Source: Heptranchias perlo
Taxonomy: Eukaryota
Assembly: GCF_035084215.1 (NCBI RefSeq)
Contig: NC_090364.1
Span: 4,588,001-4,652,000, forward strand
Length of the DNA: 64,000 nucleotides
Direction of reading: 5' to 3'
This document shows positions 42,044 through 44,242 of the stretch, in pieces. Under the pieces are notes generated by a model. The model was not told the origin of the DNA. It made no database searches and saw only the letters and a program-made list of their open reading frames with translations. The position numbers and the translations under genes were made by a program. The first letter of the stretch is position 1; each line of letters opens with the position of its first letter.

Positions 42044-44242
42044 ATGGCTTCCCAAGTGTGTCAGAACTATCACAAGGAGTGTGAGGATGGTGTCAACAAG
42101 CAGATCAATATGGAGCTCTATTCCTCCTATGTTTACCTCTCCATGGTGAGTTGTGTATTAATTGTCACTGTTTTGTAATGGTTAGATTTTCTGGCTTTAA
42201 ACTCTTTCTCTTGGCTTTGTTTCACCTCCCTGGTCAGAAAAATCTTGGGGCAGTGAGCATTTCTGGTGTGTAATACAAGGTGATCTTGTTGAGTTTAAGG
42301 ACTACTCCTTGAAGCAGCTGCACTCTATTGAGGGGTTTAATATATGAACCTGGCTCAGCTGCTGCCTGAGTTTGAGGAGCAGAAACCTGGTCAAGTGCTT
42401 GACAACTTTCAGTTTCAATGGGGTGATTGTAGCCAGTGAGATGTTGACAGGTCCTCACTTGTTTTCTTGCCTTGAGAATCCTAGTGATGAAGCCTTCACT
42501 GTGCCTAGATCTCTATTACACTAAATTGCAGAGTGTAAAACTACTGGAATGAAGGAATTTTCTCTTGTCTTCCACCAATTTTAGATTAGAATGGAGTAAA
42601 AGGAAGTACAACTTGCTCAGGAGTTGAGTTTGACTTGATGTGAAATGTAATCCCAAACATTAGTGTTTTTTTGCTGCTTAAATCTTCACCGCAGGGGCTG
42701 GAGTGCATCCTGGATGAGGAAAATAAAATTTTAATTTGATGCCTGGTTTTGGTTTATTTGCTTTTTAGTACTTAAGCACACCCTACACCCCCCCCCCTTA
42801 TAAAAGGGGGGCCTAAAAACACAAAAAAAAGGTGCTGGTTGGTGGGTAAAGTGATAGTTGAGTTGTTTGGTATCATGAGGGATTTTGTAGTGAGCGGTTT
42901 GTTCCCAGTGCTGGTGACAGTTGGAGTGGTTTGTTGCTCTGATATTTGGCAACAGTTTAGAGGCCAGAGATTTCCATGGAGAAGAGTAAAACCCACCCCA
43001 AAAAAAGAAAAAATCTTTATCCTGTGTTTTTATAGTGAAGGGAAGCTTCCCAAACATAGTGAAGTAAATTGAATTTTGCTAGTTAACAAATAGTAACTAT
43101 TTTTTAATGCAATTAATATCTTGAAGTGGAGGAAAAATAACCAAATTTGGACTTGCATATTGTAATCAAGGTCTAGCATAATATATTTAAAATTCTCTCC
43201 ACAGTCCTATTACTTTGACCGGGATGATGTTGCCCTGCGTCACTTTGCTGAGTTCTTCAAGGAGCAGTCACATGAGGAACGGGAGCACGCTGAGAAACTG
43301 CTGAAATTCCAGAATCAGCGTGGGGGCCGAATCATCTTGGAGGACATCAAGGTTTGATTTAATAAATGAGTGGTCTTCTATGTGGCTCCCCTTGGACTGA
43401 TTGTTTCAAATACTTTCTATAGCAATTAGTTCTCATTTGACTCCTGTGGCTTAATTCTGTAATTCTATGTTCTTGACATTGGTTGATGGTAACATGGACA
43501 TCTGATTTGCTTTTTGAACTCCTCCTATTTTCCTTCAATACTTTCTCATGTATTTTGTTTAATCCATTGTAAGTGATCTGGCTGACCCTTGATTCCCATT
43601 TCAGAAGCCAGAGCAGGATGAGTGGAGCAATGGTCTGGAGGTGATGCAGAGAGCTCTGCAGATGGAGAAGGATGTGAACCAGAGTCTGCTGGATCTGCAC
43701 AAACTCTCCACTGAGAGGACAGACCCTCATGTAAGTTCTAATGTGGGCCTTTGGGTAAGTTGGAGGTGGTGGAATGTTACAGTTCTTGAGCCTATTAAGA
43801 TCTTTATACCCAATATCTGTGTGTTGGGATGTCTATCTTGGATTTTTTTTGAGTGGAGCCAGAACATGAAGGTTGACCTACTGTGGACATTGAGAGGTAA
43901 GTGTGTCCCAGTGTCATGAGGATCTATGCATTTGTAAGTTTAATCCAATACTGCAGTATTTCCATCAATCTGAAATGTACCATTTGACTATCCTCCAGTC
44001 AGAGAGGATTAAAATCCAAACTCTAGGGGAAGTTCCTTGATATCTGCTGCTGGACATAACTATTTTCCCTTTTCTTCCAGTTGTGTGACTTCCTGGAGAG
44101 CCACTACTTGGATGAACAAGTGAAGATGATCAAGAAGCTTGGAGATCACATCACCAACCTGAAAAGACTGGGAGCCCCTGAGAATGGCATGGGAGTGTAC
44201 CTGTTTGACAAGCACACCTTGGGGGGGGTAGGGAGTGATTAA
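42044..44242 (+). CDS. fth1: Ferritin copy 8 (intact, 178 aa, C-terminus [11 protein letters not shown])
   Basis: TATA 41963; exons 42044-42145, 43205-43351, 43605-43730, 44081-44242; in-frame +6 nt near the stop. Confidence 0.93.
42687..43010 (+). mobile_element. Young Tx1 3' fragment C in intron 1 of copy 8, with a captured gene fragment
   Basis: [16 protein letters not shown], 3'UTR, ccccccttataaaagggggg hairpin, A-tract, unique 42831-42999, A-tract; TSD aaatctt at 42680-42686 and 43011-43017. Confidence 0.92.
42875..42999 (+). pseudogene. Captured 5' fragment of a secreted-protein gene, resembling elasmobranch ZP3-like N-termini
   Basis: [42 protein letters not shown]: signal-peptide-like hydrophobic stretch preceded by a 44-nt leader. 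ZP3 identity is from recall and needs BLAST. Confidence 0.6.

Follow-up and report, generated by a model that had tools for sequence, protein, structure and literature searches.

A ZP3-like egg-coat gene start behind an L1/Tx1-type retrotransposon end in a ferritin intron of Heptranchias perlo

How did the start of an egg-coat gene come to lie in the first intron of a ferritin gene, directly behind the 3′ end of a retrotransposon? The window analysed, 64,000 nucleotides of Heptranchias perlo DNA, contains a tandem ferritin array with nine exon-1 copies, eight on the + strand and one on the − strand, mostly 4.6-6.0 kb apart. The array may be an oocyte-type ferritin expansion.

The insertion and its host gene

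The host ferritin gene has four exons (4/4 in phase 0, without internal stops). A 324-bp insertion at 42687-43010 is located in its first intron, flanked by a 7-bp target-site duplication (TSD), and is absent from 6/6 aligned paralogous introns (6 of the 8 other copies were aligned). The first base of the TSD is less certain, the aligned paralogs mostly reading GAATCTT. The A-tracts, 44-nt leader, ATG, 42-codon frame and TSD given in the earlier note were all confirmed from the sequence, and the insertion carrying an egg-coat gene start is thereby confirmed as real. Its parts are as follows.

42044-44242, + strand: host ferritin gene, four exons at 42044-42145, 43205-43351, 43605-43730 and 44081-44242
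42680-42686, + strand: 5′ TSD copy, AAATCTT (alignment to paralogous introns)
42687-42830, + strand: 5′-truncated 3′ end of an L1/Tx1-type element, 144 nt (90.5% identity to two young ends)
42823-42830, + strand: inner A8 tract (from the sequence)
42831-42874, + strand: putative ZP3 upstream sequence, the 44-nt leader (in-frame reading matches ZP3 protein and ORF starts)
42875-43000, + strand: first 42 codons of a ZP3-like gene, MRDFV...KPTP, ATG at 42875 (protein homology)
42985-42990, + strand: AGTAAA, a poly(A) hexamer (hexamer scan of the captured piece)
43000-43010, + strand: outer A tail, A7-G-A3 (not ZP3-encoded, by comparison with homologs)
43011-43017, + strand: 3′ TSD copy, AAATCTT (alignment to paralogous introns)

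Carrier and captured piece

The truncated carrier holds the last 16 codons of ORF2 (stop at 42737-42739), the 3′ UTR and the A8 tract. Over its 144 nt it shares 90.5% identity with both of the young element ends found in the window, and the ORF2 C-terminus is the same. ORF2 of the full copy combines an APE endonuclease with a reverse transcriptase (RT), the best solved relative being L1 ORF2p (E 7e-75), and ORF1 of that copy gave a CCHC match with E 0.0016, just under the Pfam cut-off. With an APE and RT ORF2, a CCHC ORF1, an A tail and a short TSD, the carrier belongs to the L1 group of non-LTR retrotransposons; its assignment to Tx1, which follows the earlier note and the ORF1 motifs, is tentative. 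A non-coding RNA origin was discarded, as no Rfam match reached the gathering score in the 64 kb and those near the insertions were at chance level.

RNA folding of the carrier 3′ UTR gave a C/G hairpin around TATAAAAG at 42799-42806. The variant signal TATAAA is the only poly(A) hexamer near the element end in 3/3 young ends. The element's TATAAAAG sits exactly 32 nt before the ZP3 junction, a spacing that is probably poly(A)-signal geometry; the same motif could act as a TATA box.

The captured 42 codons were 88% identical over 42/42 residues to a ZP3-like protein of Heptranchias perlo (E 2.4e-16), the one hit among two candidates in a search against 5.8 billion proteins. The ZP3 identity proposed in the earlier note now stands on homology. 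A phmmer search over 1.84 billion representatives returned four hits, the best of which (E 1.3e-11) was a ZP-N-bearing ORF; the other three were dropped as low-scoring, multi-stretch matches of 29-40% identity, two of them to tandem-repeat ORFs. Many members make up the ZP3-like family: one search gave 37 clusters, the best of them with 38 members, and the family includes proteins of Heptranchias, Heterodontus, Scyliorhinus and Rhincodon. Named hits to the cargo came from sharks and rays only, save one mislabelled record: protein P0013, a shark-type ZP3-like sequence filed under a Salmonella name, is most likely a contaminated record.

Read in frame, the leader gives 12 residues; 7 annotated proteins and 2 unnamed ORFs begin in a matching way. 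MV(E/Q)LF(G/V)(I/M)M opens 7 of the 38 proteins examined, and the two ORFs begin VHEGIVQLFGIM and MGAGIVELFSIM. Because of these matches homology reaches about 33 of the 44 leader bases, so that at least these are ZP3-derived too. In two ORFs the boundary between ZP3 exon 1 and intron 1 appears to be crossed ∼135 codons past the Met; the cargo would thus be roughly the first third of the coding part of exon 1, a 3′-cut piece as judged from these ORFs and not the whole exon. The earlier description as a signal-peptide exon therefore goes too far. The 42 codons would span a putative signal-peptide region and the first part of the mature chain; hydropathy peaks at 2.6 (11-residue window) in the first half of the 42 residues, as in the homolog.

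Among the matches listed, the N-terminal 42 residues are up to 88% identical to the elasmobranch ZP3-like family and the match extends into the reading frame just upstream of the Met. Unlike members of that family, the cargo has no ZP-N or ZP-C: no Pfam match of any kind was found for 42875-43066, while the homolog has both. The cargo is a fragment, not a ZP3 member gene. No second match to its 169 nt was obtained below E 0.3 by BLAST in the 64-kb window.

Homology ends at KPTP. In 12/12 homologs, selected because their starts align without a gap, V/G-P/L follows and never K-K; therefore the outer A-tract was added and is not ZP3-encoded, and a ZP3-templated A-tract was ruled out. Of 12 poly(A) hexamers sought in the cargo only AGTAAA is present, 9 nt before the tail.

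Other element ends and the route of capture

Three further element ends were located in the window.

19683-26589, − strand: full-length young element with ORF1 and ORF2 open, antisense in a ferritin promoter
about 17229-19652, − strand: element or elements with an internal deletion or fusion, adjoining ferritin exon 2
41438-41762, + strand: older related 3′ end in a ferritin promoter, with a 65-nt piece between A-tracts

The full-length element, a possible active source with both ORFs open, ends in an A-tract, a unique 115-nt tail (19701-19815) and an A-tract. It lies ∼243 nt before a ferritin ATG, with roughly 55 nt of target deleted. The fused element(s) end in A9, a unique 176-nt tail (17241-17416) and A8. 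There the start of a second element breaks off in mid-ORF1, where it is fused to an element 3′ end adjoining ferritin exon 2; because the rest of that ferritin copy is missing, a several-kb deletion accompanied or followed this insertion. The older end also occurs at about 10.4, 30.8 and 54 kb through duplication of the ferritin unit, so that it marks a sub-lineage of copies, and its 65-nt piece is either its own 3′ UTR or cargo. Elsewhere in the window, 55479-62014 holds two near-identical LINE copies, presumably CR1-like, inverted tail-to-tail and 97.5% identical over 2.1 kb.

The 3/3 young ends carry different tails of 115-176 nt between A-tracts, and the four tails are mutually unrelated (best similarity 17/200 shuffles). 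The ZP3 piece occurs on 0/3 other ends in the window. A subfamily-wide 3′ UTR was accordingly rejected as its source, and the prospect raised earlier that the segment belongs to a consensus 3′ UTR of many copies did not materialise here. It has also been considered that a single ancient capture gave one sub-lineage the piece as a permanent tail, copied many times since, in which case this copy would tell nothing of a recent capture. Residues R2, S7 and T15 of the 42 differ from all 12 homologs examined, which allows for a history since capture, and an original transduction is compatible with such a tail; set against the absence of the piece from all three other ends, young ones of which are 90% identical, a fixed tail is quite improbable.

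Searches with the two sibling tails against Pfam gave no family match (8 frames, best E 0.1), and one frame of one tail against the Atlas gave a first hit of 0.83. Nor did local comparison with the window and with the ZP set reveal a source for them. In the 115-nt tail a perfect 12-bp inverted repeat at 19717-19741 lies near a CCAATCA box (fold z −3.7); a short hydrophobic frame in this tail was set aside as chance, since it ends in a stop and is not in phase with its ATG. Part of the 176-nt tail (17317-17370, − strand) weakly resembles 35722-35772 and seven paralogous places (2/1000 shuffles; four tails tested), all of them copies of a conserved block that precedes each ferritin ATG by about 480 nt.

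The most probable origin of the cargo is 3′ transduction, the donor element having been located where a ZP3 gene begins. The insertion has the anatomy of this process, with element, inner A-tract, unique DNA and non-templated outer tail inside one TSD, and the weak TATAAA of 3/3 young ends and the AGTAAA near the tail both fit it; at random window positions a top-four poly(A) hexamer is found 8-30 nt upstream in 4.7%. The clustering of insertions near ferritin starts, given below, makes a donor at a gene start credible. Against transduction count the lack of a poly(A) hexamer in the last 50 nt of the sibling tails (0/2) and the short 9-nt spacing of AGTAAA. One other tail adjoins a target deletion and so could be repair filler.

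A parent element would first have landed, in sense, right where one copy of the multi-copy ZP3-like family begins, possibly cutting its TATA box. Transcription, to judge from the anatomy, would then have passed the weak TATAAA and short A-tract into the ZP3 leader and 42 codons, with cleavage and tailing right after AGTAAA. Target-primed reverse transcription (TPRT) at an A-rich site in ferritin intron 1, as the anatomy shows, then copied the tail, the ZP3 piece and 144 nt of element before stopping, and left the 7-bp duplication. Target sites observed here begin with an A-run after a pyrimidine.

The main rival is an RNA-level chimera, in which RT started on a short tailed 5′ piece of abundant ZP3 mRNA and jumped to the A-tail of the element RNA or, as a variant, ZP3 RNA and element RNA were joined first. 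The cargo lies in sense and begins, like an mRNA 5′ end, within 44 nt of the ATG, two features that a chimera accounts for with no added assumption. A cap could have supplied the junction G, as can happen with L1. In the portions of the two papers used, zp3 ranks with the most abundant transcripts of zebrafish follicles (PMC1488847), and template switching is offered as the explanation for crocodilian SINEU mobilised by Tx1 (PMC4494074). Yet the chimeras described in those portions of PMC4494074 place host RNA 5′ of the element, whereas here it is 3′, and a rare 169-nt tailed ZP3 RNA is required. The two sibling tails without a protein-family match also speak against a chimera, and the CCAAT box in one and the spacer-like sequence of the other make them look more like genomic flank. 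Taken together, both forms of the chimera are judged unlikely. Of the two mechanisms offered in the earlier note, transduction is thus better supported than template jumping, and proof of either would take the donor locus.

Promoter geometry bears indirectly on the same choice. The ferritin promoters (41770-42044 and paralogs) carry several CCAAT boxes (3-6 per 271 nt in the 7 copies counted), a TATAAAT and a fixed T|AGTT at offset 32; no Rfam match to an iron-responsive element was found in them. If the junction AAAA|GG is taken for what remains of TATAAAAG on its right-hand side, T|AGTT in the leader (T|AGTTG at 42855-42860) comes to lie at offset 32, its place in 7/8 ferritin promoters; 1.2% of leader shuffles matched the offset within one base. 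The junction fits a cut TATA box, a fit noticed post hoc (p about 0.01) and dependent on a ferritin start site that is itself deduced. The ZP3 start would then lie about 25 nt downstream of the junction, near 42856, and the leader's first ∼25 nt may belong to the core promoter, in the interval from TATA box to start site. Such bases would be untranscribed, so that an mRNA template could not supply them, which would weigh against the chimera. The predicted upstream TATA reading was present in 0/11 ZP3 hits (7 fetched; homology traceable only to 33 nt before the ATG). If the box was cut, TAT should stand directly before AAAAGGTGC in intact ZP3-like copies, and if transduction is correct some ZP3 locus should have an element directly upstream of GGTGCTGG.

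Insertion sites, consequences and known systems

None of the 4-5 independent insertions is more than 1 kb from a ferritin ATG, their positions ranging from about −330 to +959. Under a simple uniform model with a 4.9-kb unit this clustering has p 0.011 for five events and 0.028 for four. Frequent read-through, and a preference for the starts of tandem genes that are probably active in oocytes, seem to characterise this family. Fish zp genes are driven by clustered CCAAT boxes, and membrane-anchored ZP precursors are made in oocytes. In zebrafish follicles, zp3 and ferritin heavy-chain mRNAs are both abundant according to the part of PMC1488847 used here. An oocyte setting for the retrotransposition is plausible by analogy. 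A broader proposal, that a Tx1-type family aims at core promoters of tandem oocyte genes (ZP3, ferritin), in the present case by cutting a ZP3 TATA box, terminates poorly and with nearly every copy drags along 100-180 nt of its parent site, is put forward tentatively and is doubtful as it stands.

Whether the insertion alters the ferritin gene was also considered. In a functional new first exon, TATAAAAG would drive a transcript and the signal peptide would be spliced to ferritin exons 2-4, giving a secreted ferritin. The frame is open to 43066, ferritin exons 2-4 are intact, and two phase-0 GT sites follow the hydrophobic stretch, at 42986 (5/9 consensus positions) and 43064 (6/9). The true ferritin donors score 8, 6 and 8 of 9, so that one of them is no better than the second site. 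Ferritin exon 2 starts only at about position 22/142 of the Ferritin profile, however, and a fusion that dropped exon 1 would lose the first ∼21 positions of the Ferritin domain and with them most of the first helix, whose placement in the fold is well established. The TATAAAAG motif is common to all young ends and placed as a poly(A) signal, and a cryptic exon from an acceptor at 42768 hits a stop in the exon 1 frame. The secreted fusion raised earlier as a possibility is therefore formally possible through 42986 or 43064 but weak; a working secreted ferritin is unlikely, given the weak donors and the location of the domain's start in exon 1, and a functional new first exon as a whole is highly improbable. 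The product is most likely a silent intronic passenger, and the likeliest effect of the insertion, in one of nine ferritin copies, is none.

The mechanism of 3′ transduction is already known; the host and the cargo are new. In the sections of PMC4862182 consulted, L1 transductions have the layout of element, short A-tract, unique DNA and new tail in one TSD, at rates of 2.5-8.8% for primate L1 and a cited 7.5-20% for humans. As in these L1/SVA cases, a truncated element, unique downstream DNA and a new A tail share one TSD and a weak signal was skipped. Unlike them, the carrier is an L1/Tx1-type element of Heptranchias perlo and the cargo is the start of a coding gene. Cargo is also found on 3/3 young ends here, against 2.5-20% for primate L1/SVA in the same sections (PMC4862182), and although the sample is very small this suggests a family that reads through often.

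Tx1 families, in the part of PMC4494074 used, can prefer specific multi-copy targets, and host pieces become attached to mobilised RNAs. The targets given there are U2, U5 and 5S genes, satellites, microsatellites and transposons, whereas the apparent targets here are starts of tandem protein-coding genes; SINEU host additions are at the 5′ end, and here the addition is 3′ (PMC4494074). Promoters of oocyte gene arrays would be a target class not among the Tx1 targets of that part of PMC4494074. In Schistosoma japonicum, a promoter and signal-sequence block is likewise found at new sites beside retroelements; there, in the portion of PMC3434034 used, the block is expressed and present in many copies, and recombination at the DNA level is held responsible. 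The present case, by contrast, is one copy with TPRT hallmarks, known from sequence alone. A search of titles and abstract openings of open-licence papers and preprints returned no report of Tx1 3′ transduction, shark ZP3 arrays or shark ferritin arrays.

With this insertion, the capture of gene pieces by 3′ transduction reaches an L1/Tx1-type element and a cartilaginous fish, and the coding cargo can be identified. If the broader proposal is true, the family hops between oocyte gene arrays, shuffling promoter and signal-peptide pieces, and each copy is labelled with its parent's address. Should most copies carry such tails, the parent of each would be mappable in the genome assembly, and the map would test whether the family targets promoters of oocyte gene arrays, and in which type of germ cell it is mobile.
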